64,000 bases of DNA from an uncultured Alphaproteobacteria bacterium (GTDB lineage: Bacteria; Pseudomonadota; Alphaproteobacteria; RF32; CAG-239), in the NCBI GenBank assembly GCA_944391395.1, contig CALXTI010000002.1:1-64000 (forward strand). The letters run 5' to 3'. Shown here in pieces: positions 12,350 to 51,605 of this stretch. The notes beneath the pieces were generated by a model that was not told the origin of the DNA, searched no databases, and saw only the letters and a list, made by a program, of their open reading frames with translations. The position numbers and the translations under genes are program-made. How positions within the stretch are numbered: the first letter of the stretch is position 1; each line of letters starts with the position of its first letter.

Positions 12350-13025
12350 ATCCGCCAAGTTGGTGCGCGGCAGAAAGAGTTTGACGGTTCGTGTCAAAAC
12401 CGCCAAATATCACAAGCCTTCGTCCAATCGTTGGTTGGAACGGCAGTTAAACGATCCGTATGTGGCCGAATCCAAACGTTTGGGTTATCGCTCGCGGGCG
12501 GCGTTTAAACTTATTCAATTAGATGAAAAATACAGGTTTTTGGGCAAAGGCAAAACGATTGTCGATTTGGGCTGCGCGCCTGGAGGATGGACGCAGGTGG
12601 CGGTTATGCGCAACAAAGGCAGCGGTCAGGTGGTCGGTATTGATATTTTAGAATGCGAGCCGGTGGAAGGGGCAAGTTTGATTTGTCAGGATTTTACCGC
12701 TGTCGACGCACCGGACAAGTTGAAGGCTCTGCTAAACGGTCCGGCTGATATTGTGATGAGCGACATGGCTGCCAACACGACCGGACACCAGCAGACCGAT
12801 CATTTGCGGACGATTGCCCTGGTTGAAGCGGCTTATCAATTTGCCAAAGAAGTGTTGGCCGAAGGAGGCATCTTTATTGCCAAAGTTTTTCAGGGCGGCG
12901 CCGAAAGCGGACTTTTGGCGGATATGAAGAAAAATTTTGCTAAAGTGTCGCATTTTAAGCCGGATGCCAGCCGGCAAGGGTCGCCGGAAACTTATGTGGT
13001 GGCGCAAGGATTTCGCGGAAATTAA
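12333..13025 (+). CDS. rlmE: 23S rRNA (uridine-2'-O)-methyltransferase RlmE/FtsJ with an alphaproteobacterial-type N-terminal extension
   Basis: RSRAAFKLIQLDEKYRFL...VDLGCAPGGWTQV plus N-terminus RKSLTVRVKTAKYHKPSSNRWLERQLNDPYV. The ORF-track start at 12327 is a TTG. ATG at 12333 is preferred. Confidence 0.85.
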   Translation: MAKLTKSAKLVRGRKSLTVRVKTAKYHKPSSNRWLERQLNDPYVAESKRLGYRSRAAFKLIQLDEKYRFLGKGKTIVDLGCAPGGWTQVAVMRNKGSGQVVGIDILECEPVEGASLICQDFTAVDAPDKLKALLNGPADIVMSDMAANTTGHQQTDHLRTIALVEAAYQFAKEVLAEGGIFIAKVFQGGAESGLLADMKKNFAKVSHFKPDASRQGSPETYVVAQGFRGN

Positions 13026-14470: not shown

Positions 14471-15076
14471 ATGAAAGTAGAAAAAATAAAATTAACGGGC
14501 ATCGCCCGCAGAATGTGGGGCTACAAAATCCTAACACCGTCAACTGTCGGCAAGTTTGTTGAAAGTCATAAACTCGCTTTGGATCGCAGCCGTCGGGTTG
14601 TTTTTGATGCGTTCGGGCGTTTTGCATCCGTTCACATTTGCCCGGAGACGTACCAGCTGCTGGGTGAAGATATCAGAGCGATGCATGGTCGCGTCGGCTT
14701 TGTTTATCACGCCTGGATACAGTATTGTGCCGACGGAAAATGGCTGACAGACTGGGAGAATGATTTTCTGCTCTATTATGAACCGCTGACGGAAGAGGCT
14801 TATGTCTTTCCGAAACGGGTGGCGGAACTTAAAACCGTTCACGCCTGGTGGCGTTTGAAAAACAAACAAGTTGAATATCCCTTGTTTGAAAAGGACGGTG
14901 TTAAAATCAGCCGCAGTTTTCTTGTCAGAGGAAACTTGTTGTGCGCCTATCGGGACGTGGCTTCTTATCAGCCTCAGGAAAATGTCTGGCAGTGGAAGTA
15001 TTTTCCGCCGCTGCACTTTGTCTATGCGAAAGTGCCGACCCTCAAAGAACTTGAGGCCATGGCGCCGGAAGCATAA
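14471..15076 (+). CDS. Hypothetical protein, paralog 3
   Basis: Family motif LLYYEPLTEEAYVFP. Same strand and spacing as the other two paralogs. Confidence 0.5.
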   Translation: MKVEKIKLTGIARRMWGYKILTPSTVGKFVESHKLALDRSRRVVFDAFGRFASVHICPETYQLLGEDIRAMHGRVGFVYHAWIQYCADGKWLTDWENDFLLYYEPLTEEAYVFPKRVAELKTVHAWWRLKNKQVEYPLFEKDGVKISRSFLVRGNLLCAYRDVASYQPQENVWQWKYFPPLHFVYAKVPTLKELEAMAPEA

Positions 15077-26795: not shown

Positions 26796-27667
26796 AGATC
26801 TCCCCATCGTAAGTTATTGTAACGAAGGGATAGAGGTGCTGAAGCGACCATCAAACGCGATAAGCCTTTGCTTTTAATTTGTTTGTACCATACTCCCGAA
26901 GATTTTTTTGGCATAAAACCGTTAATCGAAAGTTGGAACTTAGGGTATAAATTCAAAATCGCAGATACGGAACCATGTAATAACGTTATCGGTATGCATT
27001 TAACCCTGATTGCTTATCAAGAATAAATATAGGGTTTCCGACCAATATAGACGCCATATCAAGTGATATAAAATATGGAAAATTATATAAGTGAAAATCA
27101 TTGTTTTTATAAGCCAAAACATATTCATCATGCAGGTGCTTGCAATATTGCAGAGACGGAAAATCTTTTGAAAATGCGGGGAGTTCTTTTTCGGTTTTTT
27201 TATGCAAAAATCCAAAGCACTAAACATCATTGTAAGTTGACATACTTTGCGGGGCGTCATATTACCGTAATTAGGCGTATGTGCATCATTAAAACACTCA
27301 TTTTCTGCCTTTCAATCAAAAACAGATGATCCGGTTTAGATATTATCATTGCAGATTGGATATGTTGCGATTGCTACTTTTTGTAAAATGTGTATTGTAT
27401 AATGTGTCTAGTATCATTGCAGACCGGATATTTGCAATCTTTTTATCTTTGGTACGCAGAAAAATCCAAATTTGTTTTTTGCGGTATATGGGAATGAGGT
27501 CGCAAGGAACGTTAACTACCAAGTAATATGAGCTTCCGCGATTGTATAAATGCATGAACAAGCCTCCGATGATTTAAGGCTAATTCCAATGAGATTTATT
27601 AGCAGAAGTTATTAGCAATTATTGATTTATAAAGAAAAAACCGCCAAAAATGACGGTTTGCATTCTG

Positions 27668-27742
27668 TGGCTGGGGTGGCTGGATTCGAACCAACGAATG
27701 TCGGCACCAAAAGCCGATGCCTTACCACTTGGCGACACCCCA
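27668..27742 (-). tRNA. tRNA-Gln (anticodon TTG)
   Basis: The reverse complement TGGGGTGTCGCCAAGTGGTAAGGC...GGTTCGAATCCAGCCACCCCAGCCA folds as a cloverleaf. Anticodon loop is TTTTGGT. Confidence 0.8.
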
Positions 27743-27826
27743 ATCTTTCAAGGCATGCGCTATATGTAGAATAAAAAAATATTAAATGCAAGAACTTTTT
27801 TTATCAGAGAATAATTTTTTTGCTTT

Positions 27827-27992
27827 ATGATTCAAACATAACACACATGCGTAAGCGAGTAGCTGTAGGCACACCAATCCAGTCGTTGGGTATCATGTTC
27901 ATGTTGAAGTAAAACGGCAAGCGAGTAGATATAGGTACATCGGTCCGGCCGCAGGATTGCGAAGCTTTTGGGTCGGGTGAGCGCAGTCCGGA
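27827..27992 (+). repeat. Copy A of a roughly 120-170 bp intergenic repeat family. It begins ATGATTCAAAC and contains an internal partial duplication of about 70 bp.
   Basis: Aligns with 48394-48507 and with the reverse complement of 28716-28833, for example ttgcgaagcttttgggtcgggtgagcgcagtccggaacgattaat. Confidence 0.65.
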
Positions 27993-28104
27993 ACGATTAA
28001 TGCTTCTTACATAAACCAATGAAAGTTTATTCTATTTTTGGCTTTTAAAATTAAAGAAAGCGGATTAAGGTAAATCTCCTTTAATCCGCTTTTTCATTGT
28101 GGCG

Positions 28105-28566
28105 TTACCGACCGTAGACGATGATGTATGCTTTTTCTCCCTTGTGAGAAAATACATACTTTACTTTTGTATCGTCCCGCCATGGCTGATCACATTCCGC
28201 CCAGCCGGCGATTCCTTCTTCATCCTTGAACTCTTTTTTTGTGAGTTCGGGATAGGTTACAAAGACCATTTCTTCGTTGTTGAAGAAAGCATCAAAATTG
28301 TCGTAACTTATACCGAAAGTTCCGTCGGCATAGGAAAAAAGGGTTGCCCAGTCTGCACCGCCGCTTTTGGCAATCTCCAAAACATAGGCATAGTGAGCCA
28401 TCTTAAGCTCCTGCACTACATTTTTTTCTATGGGGTAAGAAACTTCGTTTAAGACAACGTTTGAGTTTTTTACCCGAATGTCTTTAATTGCCGGCACAGC
28501 ATTGGCTGTATTGGCTGCTGTAAGGCCTATGGCGGCTATACAGCATATCATAAAAATTTTTTTCAT
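28105..28566 (-). CDS. Small secreted hypothetical protein of 153 aa
   Basis: Signal peptide MKKIFMICCIAAIGLTAANTANA. Flanked by inverted copies of the repeat family. Confidence 0.6.
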   Translation of the reverse strand: MKKIFMICCIAAIGLTAANTANAVPAIKDIRVKNSNVVLNEVSYPIEKNVVQELKMAHYAYVLEIAKSGGADWATLFSYADGTFGISYDNFDAFFNNEEMVFVTYPELTKKEFKDEEGIAGWAECDQPWRDDTKVKYVFSHKGEKAYIIVYGR

Positions 28567-28715
28567 AATTGTTTTGTTTTAATATGTTACCTTTATCTGT
28601 ATATCATATTTTGAGAATAATTTCAATATAAAATTTTGTCCATTCAACAAGGCGGAAATTATTTCAGATAAAGACGCATGTTTGCAAAACCATAAACTTT
28701 TACAGGCTTACACAA

Positions 28716-28833
28716 GCGGTATTAATTGTTCCGAGCTGTGTTCACCCGACCCAAAAGTTTCGCAAGCCTAACGGCTGGGCTGGTATGCCTACATCTACCT
28801 GCTCACGTAGGTGGTGTTATATTTGAATCATAA
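28716..28833 (-). repeat. Copy B of the intergenic repeat family, in inverted orientation
   Basis: Its reverse complement, atgattcaaatataacaccacctacgtgagcaggtagatgtaggcat...cttttgggtcgggtgaacacagctcggaacaattaat, matches copies A and C. Confidence 0.65.
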
Positions 28834-28835
28834 AA

Positions 28836-28862
28836 AAACCGTCCTTAAAAAGGACGGTTTGA
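28836..28862. terminator. Bidirectional hairpin terminator (aaaccgtcctt-aaaa-aggacggttt)
   Basis: Seen directly. It lies at the 3' end of the minus-strand SPFH gene. Confidence 0.55.
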
Positions 28863-28864
28863 AG

Positions 28865-30277
28865 TTACTCTTTTTTCAACAAGCTGACTATGGCTTCCAG
28901 GATTTTCTTTCCTTCTTCGGTTGAAGCAAGGCTCTCGAGGAAACCGGCTGCAGCGTATCCGCCTTTGGGCGAAAGCGCGTCGGCTGCATTTTTGACACCG
29001 TCGGCAACGTTTCCGGCACCGGCAATGATCTTAATGTCAGCTTCTTTCAGGTTATCCGCCTGTTTTAAGCCAACACGCTCATTGGCCTCAATTTGGCGTG
29101 TTTTAACCAGATAATCCTGGTAACCGGTATTTGAGCCGATCTCTTTGGCAAGTGCGGTTTGAGCCGTAACGGATGCCATTTGCATACGCTCCTCGGCATT
29201 TGCTTTGGCTTCGCCGACGGCCTTAATACCTTTTGCCTCATTTTCAGAGGCAATAAGCTGACCTTCAGATTCAACCGATTGCTTGGCTTTGGTCGCTTCG
29301 GCTTCAATGACCTGGGCTTTTTTGGCAATTTCGGCATTACGGGTCTTTTCGACTTCGGTAATGTCCATTTCTTTTTGCTTGGTCACTTTTGCCTCGTCTT
29401 TTATCTGTTGGTCTGCTTTTTCATTTTTAATACCGACAGATGCTTTGACTTCGGCTTCACGTTGACCGACAATTTCAAAAGCGTCTTGTTTCTTTAGGTC
29501 AACGGCCTGTTTTGCAAGAATTTCAGCTTCCTCGGCCGCCTGAGAGTTTTTGGCCACCGTGATGCGTGATTCTTTTTCAATATCTGATTTTTTCTTTTTC
29601 ATGATATTTTCAATCACGGTTTCATCTCTGGCATCGCGAATATCCATCAGTTCAATATTTTTAACGGTTTGGACACCCCAGTTGGCGAGCTGTTCACGAA
29701 CGGCATTCGTGAATTTTGAGCCATATTCGGCTCGTTCGCCCATAATCAGTTCCAATTCTTCGTTAGCCAATAAAGAACGAGATGCTCCTTCCAGAATTCC
29801 GGTCAGTTGGCTGCGCAGTTCATGAAAATCTTTAATGCGCGTTGCTGCCATTTTGTAGTTTGAAATTCGAAAGAACGCCTGGATATCGACCACAAAAGGC
29901 AGACGATCTTTGTCATAGGCGTTGTAATTGTTCAGGTCTATGTCAAAAACAGACAAAGGTAGAACCGAAACATTAACGCCTAAGATCGGTATCCATACCG
30001 GCCATTCATAGTAACTGTTCCCTGCGGAGACGTCGACCACTTCAGGCGTATCGTCAATATTACCATAGATTAGGGTTTTCTTGCCTTGTCGAACGATATG
30101 CACTTCATTGGGCGCAACAACGCGGCGCAATGAAAACATCCATTTGCAAAAAAACAAGAAAAGGATAAAAACAACAATCCCAGTGCCAAGCAAAATCCAG
30201 CTTGCTGTACTCATAATTAACATAATAGATATTTTTTTAAGGGTTAATAATAAATAAAAGTGAACCATATGTATCAT
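28865..30277 (-). CDS. SPFH/band-7 (flotillin/YqiK-like) membrane protein. The true start may be an internal Met (MLIMSTASW).
   Basis: N-terminal transmembrane segment, an SPFH core and a long Ala/Glu/Lys-rich coiled coil. Confidence 0.75.
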   Translation of the reverse strand: MIHMVHFYLLLTLKKISIMLIMSTASWILLGTGIVVFILFLFFCKWMFSLRRVVAPNEVHIVRQGKKTLIYGNIDDTPEVVDVSAGNSYYEWPVWIPILGVNVSVLPLSVFDIDLNNYNAYDKDRLPFVVDIQAFFRISNYKMAATRIKDFHELRSQLTGILEGASRSLLANEELELIMGERAEYGSKFTNAVREQLANWGVQTVKNIELMDIRDARDETVIENIMKKKKSDIEKESRITVAKNSQAAEEAEILAKQAVDLKKQDAFEIVGQREAEVKASVGIKNEKADQQIKDEAKVTKQKEMDITEVEKTRNAEIAKKAQVIEAEATKAKQSVESEGQLIASENEAKGIKAVGEAKANAEERMQMASVTAQTALAKEIGSNTGYQDYLVKTRQIEANERVGLKQADNLKEADIKIIAGAGNVADGVKNAADALSPKGGYAAAGFLESLASTEEGKKILEAIVSLLKKE

Positions 30278-31902: not shown

Positions 31903-32538
31903 TTATTGTCCATATCTATCGCCCATTGGCACACTCAACCAAATGTTGCAAGTTTTGGCGTCATCACAGAATTGGCAAACTTCGTGTATTTCAGACAAAC
32001 TGGCTGATGACAAACATTTTCCTATGTGACAATATGTGTTCCCATAAAAACTGCTGCTTTCGCTGTAATCGGAATTTTCTCCTGCCGTTTTGGTCATGGC
32101 GATGCGAAACAAATCTTCAGAAAATCCCTTGCTGGTTTGATATACATTTTGGCATATTTCGGCAGCGGAATCAGAGCTGATGGCATACGAAATTCCCATT
32201 GTGAGTCGGGTTCCGTCATCTTTAATACCATTGGTGGTTAAGAGAATTTTGTTGTTAAAAGCATCATAAAGATAATCGGAACTATCTTTATCCATATTTT
32301 CCGGAACAAGTCCGAGTTTAATAAAATAATTCTTTAGACGTACGGTTCCTTGAACGTTTTTCCATTCATGACGATATTGAATGAAACCGACCAGTATGGA
32401 GTTTAGTTGCTCCGTTTGTTTGTTGAGCTTGTATTTAAGCATGGCCTTGGCATAACCCGACATCGCCCCGACGCTTAATACTCCTATGATTGCTAATACA
32501 CCAAGCATTTCGACCATACTTCTACCATTTTCCCGCAT
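31903..32538 (-). CDS. Pseudopilin-like protein, paralog of 31-624. Leader MRENG, then RSMVEMLGVLAIIGVLS. Cys-rich C-terminus.
   Basis: Same N-terminal motif. GGGAGAAAA ribosome-binding site before the ATG at 32538. Confidence 0.55.
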   Translation of the reverse strand: MRENGRSMVEMLGVLAIIGVLSVGAMSGYAKAMLKYKLNKQTEQLNSILVGFIQYRHEWKNVQGTVRLKNYFIKLGLVPENMDKDSSDYLYDAFNNKILLTTNGIKDDGTRLTMGISYAISSDSAAEICQNVYQTSKGFSEDLFRIAMTKTAGENSDYSESSSFYGNTYCHIGKCLSSASLSEIHEVCQFCDDAKTCNIWLSVPMGDRYGQ

Positions 32539-32757
32539 TATTTTCTCCCAAAATTGCAAAAAACACCTATTTTCCCGATATTCTAAACCGTTTTTTTTTT
32601 TTGCAACTTTAAAGATTCTCCGCCCAATCTTTTCTTTATCCCAGGTTGTGGTTCTTATTATAACTTCTTGTTTTTTAGGATTATGTTTTTTTAAAGCATA
32701 AAAAGCTTTTTCACCGCTGAGGCGTTATAATGTTGGTTTTGTTTAAAAGTATTTGTT

Positions 32758-33414
32758 TTAGTGGTAATTACGGATAATGGAGCTCAAAACACCTTGAACT
32801 TTAACGCGTTTGGCATCAAGTTTACGCGTTTCGTAATCTTTATTGCAAGGAACAAGCCAGACTTCCGATCCTTTTTTTTGCAGAATTTTTAAGGTGGCCT
32901 CGGTGTTATCTACCAATGCAACGACAATTTCACCATTTTCGGCGTTGTCGGTTTTTTTTATCACGGCCGTATCTCCGTCCAGAATTCCGGCGTCTTTCAT
33001 CGAATCGCCTTCTATGCGCAGGGCATAAAACTGACCGCGGGCGACCATGTTGTACGGAATCGAAAGCGTTTCCGTCCGGTCGGCAATGGCCTCAATCGGC
33101 GTTCCGGCGGCAATTTTGCCGTAAAAAGGGATTTCTGCGGCGGCATGTTGTAAAGCATTCTCGCGTTTTTTTTCTTCTTCTAAGATGGCTCTGGGTTTGA
33201 ATTTCGGCATTCGGATAACTTCAAGTGCACGGGCTTTGTGCGGAAGTTTGCGGATAAACTCACGTTCTTCCAAGGCGTTAATCAAAGTATGGATGCCGGA
33301 TTTTGATTTTAAGCCGATGGCGTTTTTCATCTCTTCAAAAGAGGGAGAACAACCGGTTTCTTTGGTGGTTTTGTTGATGAAAAGCAAGAGTTTGTACTGT
33401 TTTTCGGTTAACAT
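32758..33414 (-). CDS. lexA: LexA repressor
   Basis: N-terminal winged-helix domain, Ala-Gly cleavage region and the S24 peptidase motifs GDSM and VWLVP. Confidence 0.9.
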   Translation of the reverse strand: MLTEKQYKLLLFINKTTKETGCSPSFEEMKNAIGLKSKSGIHTLINALEEREFIRKLPHKARALEVIRMPKFKPRAILEEEKKRENALQHAAAEIPFYGKIAAGTPIEAIADRTETLSIPYNMVARGQFYALRIEGDSMKDAGILDGDTAVIKKTDNAENGEIVVALVDNTEATLKILQKKGSEVWLVPCNKDYETRKLDAKRVKVQGVLSSIIRNYH

Positions 33415-37475: not shown

Positions 37476-37527
37476 GTGAGTTAAGCATCACCAATAAAAA
37501 ACCTCTCTTGAAAAGAGAGGTTTTTTT
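37476..37527 (+). repeat. Copy 1 of the short repeat GTGA[G/A][T/A]TAAGCATC...AAGAGAGG, here fused to a complete hairpin terminator (aaaaacctctctt-gaaa-agagaggttttttt)
   Basis: Matches 38141-38175 and 38929-38966. Confidence 0.6.
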
Positions 37528-37697
37528 GTTGACCCTAGGGGCTCGAACCCAGGGTTCGTTCAATTCCGACTATGTTTCGCCGCGCAGCGCTGCCGCTTGC
37601 CTGCTCAAACAAGTCTCATTGCGTCTCCTTAAAAAAAACTTTCCCCGGAAGTTTTTTTGCGGCTGTCCGTTGGAATCACAAAAAAACAGAAGCTGTT

Positions 37698-38054
37698 TTA
37701 AGGCTTCTGTTTTGGAGATTCTGTTGATGCTTTTATAACAGGGAGAATGCAAGTAAAAGACAAGGTGAAAGCAAATGTTGCCGTTGCTATTGTTTCAAAG
37801 AGTCCCGTATAAACCCCAAGCATTCCTTCCGTTGCCATAAAGGCAAAAAGCACGCCTGAAAAAATCCAGCCTATCCCGGCATCGATAAGTTTCTCAGGTT
37901 TTATAAAAGCCAGCACTATTCCTAAGGCTGTAATTACGGCTACAAAGAAAATGATGCCTTTCCAATTAAACTCATGTGCTATTGATAAGCCCCATGCTAC
38001 AAAAAGTGTAAATAAAGGAGCCATTAAAATTAACAATATTTTTTTCATACGCAT
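37698..38054 (-). CDS. Small integral membrane protein (about four transmembrane helices)
   Basis: Hydrophobic profile of the 118-aa ORF. Confidence 0.45.
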   Translation of the reverse strand: MRMKKILLILMAPLFTLFVAWGLSIAHEFNWKGIIFFVAVITALGIVLAFIKPEKLIDAGIGWIFSGVLFAFMATEGMLGVYTGLFETIATATFAFTLSFTCILPVIKASTESPKQKP

Positions 38055-38966: not shown

Positions 38967-39151
38967 ATTCGGACGAGATTTTTTGCTCTGTTTTTGTTTG
39001 TTTTCCATTTATAAAAACGGTTGTTAAATTGATGTAAGATTGAAGTCCGTTGGTTGATTTAGTTTTTTTCTTTTGGTGATGCCGGTCAACCCTAATATTA
39101 AACTTGATTTGTTGAAATAAATTCCATACGATGTAAACCAAGGAGTTGGAT

Positions 39152-39610
39152 ATGAAAAAAATATTTTTTATTTTATCTTGTTGCATCATTGTTTCTCAAG
39201 CTCATGCCTATGTTAATTGTTATGAAGATGGTTATGGAAATAGGAATTGTTACGGAACGAATTCTGACGGAGACTTCGTAAATATTCGTTCTTCCAGAGA
39301 TTCTTTTGGAAACACCAATACGTTCGGCACCATAGGCGATGACTTTATGGACACACGTTCTTCCAGAGATTCTTTTGGAAACACCAATACATTTGGCACA
39401 ATAGGCGATGACTTTATAGATGTGCGTTCTTCCAGAGATTCTTTTGGAAATACCGATACGTTTGGCACCATAGGCGATGATTTTATAAACACACGTTCTT
39501 CCAGAGATTCTTTTGGAAATACCAATACGTTTGGCACCATAGGCGACGATTTTATAAACACGCGTTCTTCCAGAGATTCTTTTGGAAACACGACCATATA
39601 TGACTTTTAA
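39152..39610 (+). CDS. Secreted protein made of a signal peptide plus five tandem 20-aa repeats (RSSRDSFGNTNTFGTIGDDF)
   Basis: Signal peptide MKKIFFILSCCIIVSQAHA. AGGAG ribosome-binding site. Repeats are visible in the translation. Confidence 0.65.
   Translation: MKKIFFILSCCIIVSQAHAYVNCYEDGYGNRNCYGTNSDGDFVNIRSSRDSFGNTNTFGTIGDDFMDTRSSRDSFGNTNTFGTIGDDFIDVRSSRDSFGNTDTFGTIGDDFINTRSSRDSFGNTNTFGTIGDDFINTRSSRDSFGNTTIYDF
39287..39600 (+). repeat. Five near-identical 60-bp tandem repeats that encode the protein repeats
   Basis: cgttcttccagagattcttttggaaacaccaatacgtt[c/t]ggcaccataggcgatgactttat... reiterated. The antisense ORF 39250-39597 is an artefact of this repeat. Confidence 0.85.
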
Positions 39611-39695
39611 TAATTAATTTAACGAAATACAACATATAAACTTTGATATTATATTTTGCCTTATGATAAATTGAGAAACGGTAATACATGTGTGA

Positions 39696-47752: not shown

Positions 47753-47850
47753 GCCATAACATCGAAAATAAAAAAATATTGACAAAAAGCCCAAAAAGAG
47801 GTGTATTGATTTTGTTTAAGAAGTTATTGTGAAATTAAATTGCAAAAGAT

Positions 47851-48321
47851 ATGAAAAAAATGAAAAAAGAAGCAGAGCTTGAATTTTTGATGAGCTCTGC
47901 CAAAGAAGAAAAAAGAGAATACTCAAAACAATTCGGGATTTGCACGCCGAATCTGAGTTATCTCATGGAAGAAAACCGTGAGATTTTTGACGAGATTATC
48001 TCGGAGTGCAAGAGAATTCCGGATACCGTCATGGCGGCTATGATTGAAGAGGAAAAATATCTTGACGTCATTATGGCAAGATGTCTTTCCGAAGACAATC
48101 AGGTAAAATTTGTAGAATATTGGCCGGAGAAGGTGGCGCAATATTTGCAAATTTTGGAGGCCAATCTTGAAGACGGCCGCGGCGCGTATCTCTGCCGGGA
48201 GGCAGAAGAAATATATGAGGAGATTCGGGAAGAAGATTCTTCTCTGCCGGAACTGAAGGTTCGCCTTTCCGGCACTCCGGCGATCAATTCGCCATTTGCC
48301 GTTCTGGCAAACGCGTTTTGA
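47851..48321 (+). CDS. Hypothetical acidic protein of 156 aa
   Basis: ORF followed by a strong terminator. No domain. Confidence 0.45.
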   Translation: MKKMKKEAELEFLMSSAKEEKREYSKQFGICTPNLSYLMEENREIFDEIISECKRIPDTVMAAMIEEEKYLDVIMARCLSEDNQVKFVEYWPEKVAQYLQILEANLEDGRGAYLCREAEEIYEEIREEDSSLPELKVRLSGTPAINSPFAVLANAF

Positions 48322-48336
48322 TTGAAAAAAACGAAT

Positions 48337-48373
48337 GAGAGAAACATCGTGTAAACGATGTTTCTCTTTTGTT
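48337..48373 (+). terminator. Rho-independent terminator (gagagaaacatcg-tgtaaa-cgatgtttctct followed by TTTGTTG)
   Basis: Seen directly. Confidence 0.65.
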
Positions 48374-48393
48374 GTCTTTAAAATATCCTTTTT

Positions 48394-48507
48394 ATGATTC
48401 GAACGTAACACTACCTGCGTATGCAGGTAGAGGTAGGCATGCCAACCCGGCCATAGGTTTGCAAAGCTTTGGGGTAGGGCGAACGAAGTTCGGAATGATA
48501 ACACTAT
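48394..48507 (+). repeat. Copy C of the intergenic repeat family (same family as 27827-27992 and 28716-28833). It contains the perfect hairpin ctacctgc-gtat-gcaggtag.
   Basis: atgattcgaacgtaacactacctgcgtatgcaggtagaggtaggcatgcc...gcaaagctttggggtagggcgaacgaagttcggaatgataa aligns with copies A and B. Confidence 0.65.
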
Positions 48508-48676
48508 TTGCGTAAGCCAGGGGAAGTTCATTTTGTAAACATAATCAATTAGCATCTTTTCTTATGGCGGTATTGATTCAATATTTTCCACAAGCCGATA
48601 AAAACCCTTGACTTAGGGTTAACTCTAATATTTATACGTGTATATGTCTTAATGATAACATTTTAGCGAGGTTTGT

Positions 48677-49822: not shown

Positions 49823-50148
49823 ACTTTAAGTGTCGGTATGGGGAAGTAATTTTTGATGTCCGGCGCTACAATGTAAAATTGCGAAGTTTGTACCACCAAC
49901 GCTTGAAAAACGATAGTTTATGATTCAATATTTTGCAAGGTTGCCAACCTTTTTGTAAAGCACGGTCGCCGGTCATTATCATGTCAACGCTGCCGAGTTT
50001 GTTAAGGTTTAAGGAGGTGCGGTACGATAATATGCGAGAAGTTTTCCGGTTTAAAAAGTTCTTCCGTTCAAGCAAGCGGGAGATTTCCGCAGCGGTGATA
50101 TCTTAAAACACGGTGTTTTTAAAAGTTATTAAAAAAACGGATTTATAT

Positions 50149-50877: not shown

Positions 50878-51005
50878 AATCTTTCTCCATATTTGACCCA
50901 TATTTTGAATTATACGTTTTTTTTCTTAAAATCGGATTAAGACGATCTGCCACATTTATTAAGCTAATATCTGTTTTTTTAATTTTTAAGATGAAAGGAA
51001 AACAG

Positions 51006-51605
51006 ATGATATACGGCTACATCCGCGTCAGTTCGGATAAACAGACGGTTGAAAATCAGCGTTTTGAAATCAATGAATTTATCAAAAAGAATGATTTACG
51101 GGTCGACCGTTGGGTACACGAAGTGATAAGCGGAGTTAAAAATTTTGAAGAGAGAAAATTAGGAAAGTTGCTTAAGGGGTTGAAAAAAGGCGATGTTCTC
51201 TTGTGTTCGGAGCTTTCGCGGTTGGGTCGCAATCTTTTACAAATCATGACAATCTTAAACATATGCATGCAAAAGGAAGTGCAAGTATGGACGATTAAAG
51301 ACAATTATCGTCTGGGTGCTGATATTCAGAGCAAGGTTTTGGCGTTTGCTTTCGGGCTTTCGGCGGAAATCGAGCGCAACCTTATTTCGCAGCGCACCAA
51401 AGAAGCACTGGCGCGTCTAAAAGCCGAAGGCAAAAAACTGGGTCGAAAACAGGGAACGCGCATTGCCAACAAAAAAATCAGCGGCAAAGAAGAATGGATT
51501 TTGCGGATGCTGGAGCAAAAAACACCGAAGGTGAAAATCGCGCAAGCGCTCGGAATATCCAGAATCACGCTCTATTGTTTTTTAAAAAGGTTTGAACGGG
51601 CGTGA
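51006..51605 (+). mobile_element. Small serine recombinase (resolvase/invertase family) with a C-terminal helix-turn-helix
   Basis: MIYGYIRVSSDKQ catalytic-serine N-terminus, about 200 aa. AAGGAAA ribosome-binding site. Confidence 0.85.

Follow-up and report, generated by a model that had tools for sequence, protein, structure and literature searches.

The bcr1 repeat of the Bacillus cereus group is a TTTAT-flanked sequence of about 155 bp that has many partial copies, is transcribed and shows compensatory changes (PMC6542083, PMC6199540, PMC3184786). Repeats of the bcr type often lie within untranslated regions (UTRs; PMC3446304), and the mechanism that mobilises bcr1 is still unknown (PMC6542083, PMC6199540, PMC3184786, PMC3446304). 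Insertion sequences of the IS200/IS605 family insert 3' of a short motif and carry no inverted repeats. TTTAT is the target, or transposon-adjacent motif (TAM), of ISGst2, and TTCAT that of ISGst5; gene-less derivatives of such elements, known as PATEs (for example, relatives of ISGst1 and ISGst5 in Geobacillus stearothermophilus), depend on mobilisation in trans (bioRxiv 10.1101/2023.03.14.532601). Here, we describe a TTTAT-bounded repeat that occurs in three full-length copies, A, B and C, in a 64,000-nucleotide stretch of contig CALXTI010000002.1 from an uncultured Alphaproteobacteria bacterium (the whole stretch is hereafter called the window), and in further copies in related genomes.

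The repeat belongs to a new family of a known kind, that of small structured mobile repeats without terminal inverted repeats. We consider it likely that the family represents a non-autonomous, modular, mobile interspersed repeat, similar to bcr1, in a clade of uncultured gut Alphaproteobacteria. Likeness to bcr1 extends to size (about 130-155 bp), intergenic location, copy number above one, TTTAT on both sides and many partial copies. In both cases distribution differs among close relatives, the predicted fold has multiple stems with some compensatory changes, locations are frequently UTR-like and the mobilising enzyme is not known. The hosts differ, bcr1 being a repeat of Firmicutes, and two traits of the new repeat, the link to terminator T-tails and a closing helix with a near-palindromic core, are not among the features described for bcr1 in the papers cited here. 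The comparison with bcr1 is one of descriptions; a blastn search of 72,556 PLSDB plasmids, said to include bcr1-bearing B. cereus plasmids, returned no match. The TTTAT boundaries and the preference for terminator tails make the family mildly interesting, and its description adds an interspersed repeat to what is recorded from poorly known uncultured bacteria of the human gut. The shared TTTAT boundary links this repeat, bcr1 and the TTTAT-targeting IS200/IS605 elements, and suggests a testable common mechanism for 'TIR-less MITEs', that is, transposable elements of the miniature inverted-repeat type (MITEs) devoid of terminal inverted repeats (TIRs).

The repeat unit and its copies in the window

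The units measured are 127-143 nt long, and members of the family span about 130-145 bp. Similarity between copies starts at T(T)TAT followed by G(A/T)TTY(G/A)AAC and stops at ..GG(Y)GGAAG directly before TTTAT, beyond which the flanks are unrelated. Written for the family as a whole, the 5' end is TTTAT followed by GATTCGAACGTCTGC.. and the 3' end is ..GGTGGAAGTTTAT. Every copy has TTTAT on its left and closes with T(T/C)TAT on its right, and all canonical copies have TTTAT or a one-base variant of it on both sides. Within these limits the unit is modular. The 5' module consists of GATTCGAAC, a GNRA-capped hairpin (GUCUGC-GUAA-GCAGGY) and a GC-rich arm, and the 3' module of UGCGAAGCUU, GGGCG, GUUCGGAAU, a terminal hairpin and GGAAG. 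The 5' module has been duplicated independently in copy A (66 nt, diverged) and in contig L024 (44 nt, exact) with the same internal endpoint, and solitary 5' fragments occur.

An earlier reading of the window, the original prediction, had outlined a repeat family in three copies, and this outline is correct. By reading and alignment of the sequence we recognized the shared unit in three stretches, in the predicted orientations: copy A at 27889-28030 (+; alignments and covariance model R1, 86.2 bits, E=7e-18), copy B at 28692-28834 (-; R1, 111.6 bits, E=6e-24) and copy C at 48391-48531 (+; R1, 116.8 bits, E=3e-25). With nhmmer and the covariance model, E-values for the window copies were 1e-18 to 1e-47. 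A 24-nt degenerate core, TTGCRAARCTTTKGGGTMGGGYGA, has exactly three matches in the window, with 0.00 expected from 100 shuffles. The predicted places of the copies were right, as was their common start, ATGATTC(A/G)AA, whereas the 3' ends had been drawn too tightly and conservation runs about 35 nt further, through ..GTAAGCC..AAGTTTAT.

Individual copies also bear out finer details that had been noticed. The partial duplication within copy A is an extra 5' module at 27824-27889 (+; nhmmer, model positions 7-73, E=7e-11; direct-repeat family D7). This half-copy opens with TTTAT followed by GATTCAAAC, holds a hairpin like that of the 5' module and is directly followed by the full copy, whose 5' end is degenerate and whose 3' end reads ..GAAAGTTTAT. 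Copy C ends in ..GAAGTTCAT and contains the corresponding hairpin, H1, as a perfect 8-bp helix, ctacctgc-gtat-gcaggtag; the allele of copy C in strain contig L011 is a few single-nucleotide polymorphisms apart. Identity between copies A and B is only about 66%.

The MITE/REP-like label (REP, repetitive extragenic palindromic) that had been offered for the family fails: the repeat is neither a classical MITE nor REP-like. Terminal inverted repeats are absent, since the reverse-complemented 3' end (ATAAACTTCCACC) bears no relation to the 5' end (GATTCGAACG..). An inverted partner that the 5' end does have, GTTCGGAAT, is internal and lies about 40 nt inside the 3' end. Like MITEs (Correia/NEMIS, RUP, ERIC), BOX and SPRITE elements, the unit is small, non-coding, multi-copy, intergenic and foldable, and it shares modularity with a variable number of modules with BOX and a position at gene 3' ends with SPRITE (PMC3184786, PMC3049150). 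It differs from MITEs in its missing TIRs, in the internal position of the inverted partner and in a boundary of TTTAT rather than TA or another short duplication. REP, BIME and REPIN sequences are built from GC-rich palindromes of 20-40 nt, often as inverted doublets with a RAYT, whereas the present unit is far longer, at about 140 nt, and is a multi-helix structure rather than a simple palindrome.

Copies in other genomes and insertion at terminator tails

The family is not confined to the three window copies. At least 16 copies were collected in total, in unrelated intergenic contexts and from three lineages of uncultured gut Alphaproteobacteria. The window has a GC content of 42%, and the genomes of the other two lineages, which hold diverged copies of 58-88% identity, have about 35% and about 50-54%. 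A blastn search in 'distant' mode of the INPHARED phage set led to about 13 further copies in six human-faecal contigs of 49-54% GC deposited as 'UNVERIFIED Bacteriophage sp.' (L023-L028; GenBank MT836276, MT835966, MT835876, MT836861, MT836501 and MT837069). Because these contigs carry housekeeping genes, with recJ, rpsD, an opp-type ABC transporter, parC, rsmI, tsaB and a PAS kinase among their contents, we reject a phage origin and regard these faecal-virome records as fragments of alphaproteobacterial chromosomes. They may reflect virome contamination, or DNA packaged by transduction or by a gene transfer agent. Copies are also present in L029, another contig of the species of L025, and one canonical copy is found in L039, a 35% GC genome in which the orthologous protein is only 57% identical. 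Carriers of copies thus far comprise the species of the window, the BRZ and ONAT22 assemblies, and the species to which Logan contig SRR31240021_297 and ENA contig ERZ17292905 k87_8539789 belong.

Covariance model R1 was built from ten copies. It recovers the canonical copies together with four variants that keep both ends and have different middles (L025 6563, L025 1563, L026 2214 and L028 1224). The model and the boundary definition can be used to annotate intergenic regions in these bacteria. Identity between copies of different genomes (77-81%) is at least as high as that between copies of one genome (62-75%), with orthologous proteins only about 57% identical. Neutral vertical descent would not produce this pattern. 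It would arise if a conserved master copy had seeded others time and again, or under strong constraint. Exact-pattern scans of genome and metagenome contig collections, with patterns taken from the three window copies, gave nothing, or two chance matches in plant-like DNA; the L023 copy shows that such patterns are too strict. Three scans of a viral contig collection found no copies, and tblastx of L023 against the window gave no usable match.

A shorter unit of about 45 nt, TTCAGAGCTTTTATGArYCGTCrGATCrGGArTTTTTAT, was seen at L023 3745-3790, L025 ~12430-12470 and L029 ~14880-14920. It is bounded by TTTAT like the main repeat, and is either a mini derivative or a second family.

Comparison with relatives at syntenic loci argues for insertion; these loci were centred on two proteins encoded next to copies, one of 706 aa and the other a TPR protein. 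About 300 kb of orthologous sequence from relatives with 67-83% protein identity contained no copies, and the covariance model found none in L017-L021. The clearest site lies upstream of rpsD. In L030 (80% protein identity) a terminator hairpin is followed by TTTTTGCATAAGATAATGC, and the site is empty. In L025 and L029 the same hairpin is followed by TTTTTTTTAT, 112 nt of inserted sequence, and then TTTTAT and GTAAGATAATGC. A T-run with AT flanks the insert at either end, and the empty relative has it a single time.

Of the 16 copies, seven directly adjoin a hairpin that runs out at the T-run and has an energy of -11 kcal/mol or stronger, and by eye an eighth does too. In copy B, which is one of these, the 5' TTTAT closes the T-run of the intrinsic terminator of a Band_7/flotillin gene (hairpin at 28836-28860, -; terminator scan, -11.2 kcal/mol; gene at 28865-30277, -). 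In the nearest species (L017) the flotillin terminator ends ..TTTTTTTAT and no repeat follows. Copies sit at T-rich TTTAT sites in a single orientation, and such a site is very often the T-tail of an intrinsic terminator. Insertion at such a tail spares the hairpin and the U-tract, and presumably termination, and is probably tolerated; the preference is an example of a transposable element settling on a site of this kind. Collectively, the unrelated contexts in three lineages, the replaceable middles, the fragments, the filled and empty rpsD sites and the absence from syntenic relatives agree with the behaviour of a small mobile repeat that had been suspected from the window alone.

Class C (IIC) group II introns also insert just downstream of intrinsic terminator hairpins and in one orientation, and the repeat resembles them in this respect. 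It is 5-10 times too small for such an intron, however, and has neither a GUGYG 5' end nor domains V and VI; no copy matched an Rfam group II intron.

Two contigs of one species, L025 and L029, encode 706-aa proteins that are 100% identical. Homology between the two contigs (L025 12380-13075 versus L029 14826-15186) ends right after GAGCTTTTATGA(A/G)TCGTCAGAT, downstream of an ABC ATPase gene. From there on, each side has a different repeat copy. The interval between the ABC and parC genes also has prophage-like genes in L033-L035 and L037 and appears to be a hot spot.

Probable mobilisation, predicted fold and other explanations

The gene-less unit probably depends for its movement, in trans, on an enzyme whose gene lies at another place in the genome, as the precedents of bcr1 and the IS200/IS605 PATEs suggest. 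The route that we favour, though only tentatively, is single-strand 'peel-and-paste' transposition of the IS200/IS605 type, with the repeat as a PATE-like derivative. The enzyme would act in trans on the unit, the left TTTAT would be the target or TAM, the right TTTAT would be the element's own end motif (TEM), and the subterminal hairpins would be the parts recognised by the transposase. The repeat shares with PATEs the lack of terminal inverted repeats, orientation-specific insertion next to a short motif for which TTTAT is documented, hairpins near both ends on one strand, a target-like motif at its own right end and the proposed mobilisation in trans. It differs in that its two hairpins are dissimilar, that no strand bias was seen, that the presumed guide bases showed no covariation with TTTAT and that no Rfam family matches it. 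The left hairpin, GTCTGC-GTAA-GCAGGT, lies 9 nt inside the boundary and the right one, CCACCGG-TGTTAG-CCGGTGG, 3 nt before TTTAT, and their sequences are unrelated. Because the hairpins are unlike each other and no transposase was found in the sequence examined, we hold an IS200/IS605-type mechanism to be a possibility, whereas a mobile repeat as such is likely.

Several observations weigh against a mobile element, or against this way of moving it. Only one clean pair of filled and empty sites is available, that at rpsD, and the 3' half of its copy is atypical. A second pair, for the canonical copy of L023, was not obtained; that copy lies within a 650-nt composite insert between convergent genes. 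None of the window copies has a clean empty site either: A and B lie within a segment that is wholly different in the nearest species, and C is missing only as part of an 816-bp block. The left and right TTTAT pentamers are unequal in about half of the copies, so that a simple target-site duplication is neither confirmed nor excluded. No transposase came to light. Pfam searches of the island open reading frames (ORFs) gave only a 204-aa serine resolvase (50991-51605), a crude motif screen for HUH and Zn-ribbon signatures in about 200 kb was negative, and the same screen, with Pfam on selected ORFs, detected no tnpA, tnpB or iscB in the available sequence. The ends of IS608-type elements resemble each other, whereas the left and right hairpins of the repeat do not, and no consistent strand bias is seen. 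Finally, the interior is more conserved than is usual for decaying transposon relics, as might likewise be expected of a functional RNA or of a DNA element bound by protein.

A more far-reaching version, which we regard as quite improbable, would make the repeat a terminator-tail-homing, gene-less IS200/IS605-type derivative whose 3' module serves as an omega-RNA scaffold, used in trans by a TnpB/IscB-type nuclease with TTTAT recognition. If so, these gut Alphaproteobacteria would carry dispersed RNA-guided 'homing' cassettes.

The predicted single-strand fold has a closing helix around two or three inner helices, plus a 3' hairpin. We built the model by hand, wrote it on the L023 copy and scored it on 17 distinct sequences. 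The closing helix, P1, pairs GAUUCGAAC with GUUCGGAAU; H1 is GUCUGC-GUAA-GCAGGU, with GCAGAC as an alternative 3' partner; P3 pairs GCCCAGCC with GGCCGGGC; P4 is AGGCU-UGCGU-AGCUU; and P5 is the terminal hairpin. Cells paired in the model amounted to 81%, and to 32-46% when partners were slid by 1-3 columns. There were 17 compensatory cells against 10.5 +/- 2.8 in shuffled data, a count reached by 14 of 500 shuffles. The best single case is the closing helix of copy L026a, which is fully compensated (CGCUUUAAA/UUUAAAGCG). The core of P1 is nearly palindromic (TTCGAA, TTTAAA), however, so that a pair of binding-site copies would explain a concerted change of its arms no less well than a helix would. 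Covariation support for the fold is only suggestive; of the prediction of a structured element, the conserved fold stands and the statistical support is modest. A helix between the central AGCUUC and the 3' tail GAAGUU was dropped in favour of the local P4 as a probable artefact, AAGCUU being palindromic and the tail resembling the centre. An RNAalifold structure from the raw MAFFT alignment was poor (covariation term -0.04) and was replaced by the hand-built model.

The strongest of the other explanations, though in our view an unlikely one, is that the copies are paralogous small RNA genes or cis-acting UTR RNA elements, with the TATGAT/TATGTT box as a -10 promoter element and the fold as the product. 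The pairing and compensatory changes just described favour such a reading, as do the conservation of the interior across genomes of 35-53% GC, a TTGACA-18-TATGTT arrangement upstream of the L024 copies and the fact that about half of the copies closely follow a gene of the same orientation, so that read-through could transcribe them; the frequent location of bcr-type repeats in UTRs (PMC3446304) points the same way. Other data do not suit RNA genes. Orthologous sites in close relatives are empty, and the variants that keep only the ends and swap the middle are unlike an RNA gene. The TATGAT box falls within the closing helix. Where a copy adjoins a terminator, a -35 box would have no space, and the terminator scans flagged nothing at the 3' ends of the three copies in the window. 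Folded singly, the sequences do not exceed shuffled ones in stability (z -0.4 to -1.0), and the advantage of the unit strand over its complement in pairing is small (81.7% versus 74.1%). The original prediction could assign the repeat to no known family, and Rfam agrees: at gathering thresholds Rfam 15 reports only three tRNAs in the window, and even with relaxed cut-offs (E<=10 for the window, E<=5 for L024-L027) no hit coincides with a copy. Some copies of the mobile repeat may nonetheless have been co-opted for an RNA role, and copies within transcripts may also act at the RNA level.

We consider it very unlikely that the copies are recombination sites, in which the near-palindromic core GATTCGAAC (TTCGAA) and its partner GTTCGGAAT would be bound by a recombinase such as the nearby serine resolvase, and the repeats would mark exchangeable cassettes (the 153-aa gene between A and B, and the 156-aa gene with C). 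A related idea is that the TTCGAA core may be the crossover site of an undescribed cassette-exchange system. The two arms do change in concert, L026a having GCTTTAAA twice and L026b GGTTTGAA twice, which fits a pair of binding sites as well as a helix. Homology between L025 and L029 breaks inside a motif like the 5' end, the 816-bp block has core-like sequence at its two junctions (ATCGAAA and GATTCAATA), copies A and B mark the edges of the stretch from flotillin to tRNA-Gln, in which the nearest species has entirely different sequence, the resolvase gene is at hand, and bcr5 repeats flank a resolvase-containing cluster (PMC3184786). Most copies, however, are solitary in housekeeping regions with no cassette or recombinase nearby, the insertion at rpsD is a simple one that consists of nothing but the repeat, and the arrangement of A, gene and B was never inverted or in another context in 22 contigs. 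The core-like junction motifs are short and occur at chance level in the window (10 versus 5.8 +/- 2.5). Integron attC sites were considered separately and rejected; the RYYYAAC/GTTRRRY cores are absent from the ends.

The notion that there is no family, and that local segmental duplication, chance or a small coding sequence (the mini-ORF ATG ATT CRA AYR TAA) accounts for the copies, is to all intents refuted by the at least 16 copies in differing contexts of three lineages (chance expectation 0.00), even though the pair of copies in L024 represents a local duplication of about 467 bp and copies A, B, C and L023 each hold an ATG-initiated ORF of 4-6 codons, since no Shine-Dalgarno sequence precedes this ORF, its start codon is lost in L026a and L027 (ACG, GTG and other changes) and no reading frame is kept across copies, for which reasons a mini-ORF or leader peptide was rejected.

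Genes and strain variation around the window copies

Copies A and B are inverted about a 153-aa ORF (28105-28566, -; from the ORF list and outside the repeat), and tRNA-Gln(UUG) lies beside A (27668-27742, -; ARAGORN and Rfam), 82 nt from its outer end, all as originally described. The 3' end of copy B is about 125 nt upstream of the ORF, whose product, predicted to be secreted on account of a signal-peptide-like N-terminus, has only a weak match to DUF2613. All 22 contigs with the 153-aa gene have it in the identical flotillin/tRNA-Gln context and orientation. Since A, gene and B are always found in one context and A and B have diverged as far as they have, the composite geometry is an arrangement rather than a demonstrated mobile unit, and the composite-element reading is not supported. 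In the nearest species everything from the flotillin terminator to the tRNA-Gln promoter is different, with an MBL-fold gene and a 340-aa gene in its place.

On the far side of tRNA-Gln (window 26800-27660), gene content varied among strains in L001-L010. The variable genes encode a DNA methylase, a UvrD/AAA helicase, a DUF1796 protein, or a large serine recombinase with a dUTPase. Variation of this sort is what an integration hot spot typically shows; in the window itself, AT-rich non-coding DNA of about 860 nt takes up this place.

Copy C lies 22 nt downstream of the terminator of a 156-aa gene (48337-48368, +; terminator scan). Both belong to an 816-bp block (47768-48583, +), delimited by alignment with the junctions read directly, that comprises a promoter, the 156-aa gene, its terminator, copy C and 52 nt more. 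The block is present in the window and in L011 and missing from L012 and L014; L013 has copy C and begins inside the block. Its junctions, ATCGAAA before A and GATTCAATA before TTTT, look like the 5' core of the repeat. Relative to the strains without it, copy C is not an independent insertion: it is absent, along with the neighbouring 156-aa gene, as one 816-bp block. Copy C had been placed in a 'tRNA-Glu island'. Gene content near C does vary among strains, whereas tRNA-Glu is 12 kb from the copy.

The motif TGATTCAATATTTT is found again at 49919. Nearby, a 419-aa gene is intact in L011 and L013, with only remnants in the window (49866-50075, versus L011 4217-5476) and in L012. Bounding of this indel by the TGATTCAATATTTT motif was checked and rejected, since the internal deletion is not edged by the repeat motif.

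Elsewhere in the window, at 37520-37700 (-), a terminator hairpin accompanies TTTTTTTGT followed by GATTCCAACG...CCGGGGAAAG followed by TTTTTTTT, which looks like the repeat in a miniature form of 40 nt. Closely downstream of this follows a tRNA-like T-arm (GGGTTCGAGCCCC) called by neither ARAGORN nor Rfam; it may be a tRNA fragment, or an att-site scar by the tRNA-Glu region. Two further repeats were noted. Four overlapping 138-nt copies at 39272-39616, spaced by 69 nt (equivalent to five tandem 69-nt units) and 78-89% identical, lie in the ORF at 39146-39610. A 141-nt inverted repeat, 6-146 versus 32423-32563, is 71% complementary and matches the 5' ends of a pair of paralogous ORFs (10-624, +, and 31903-32559, -), both without a Pfam match; a LexA gene lies at 32758-33414.

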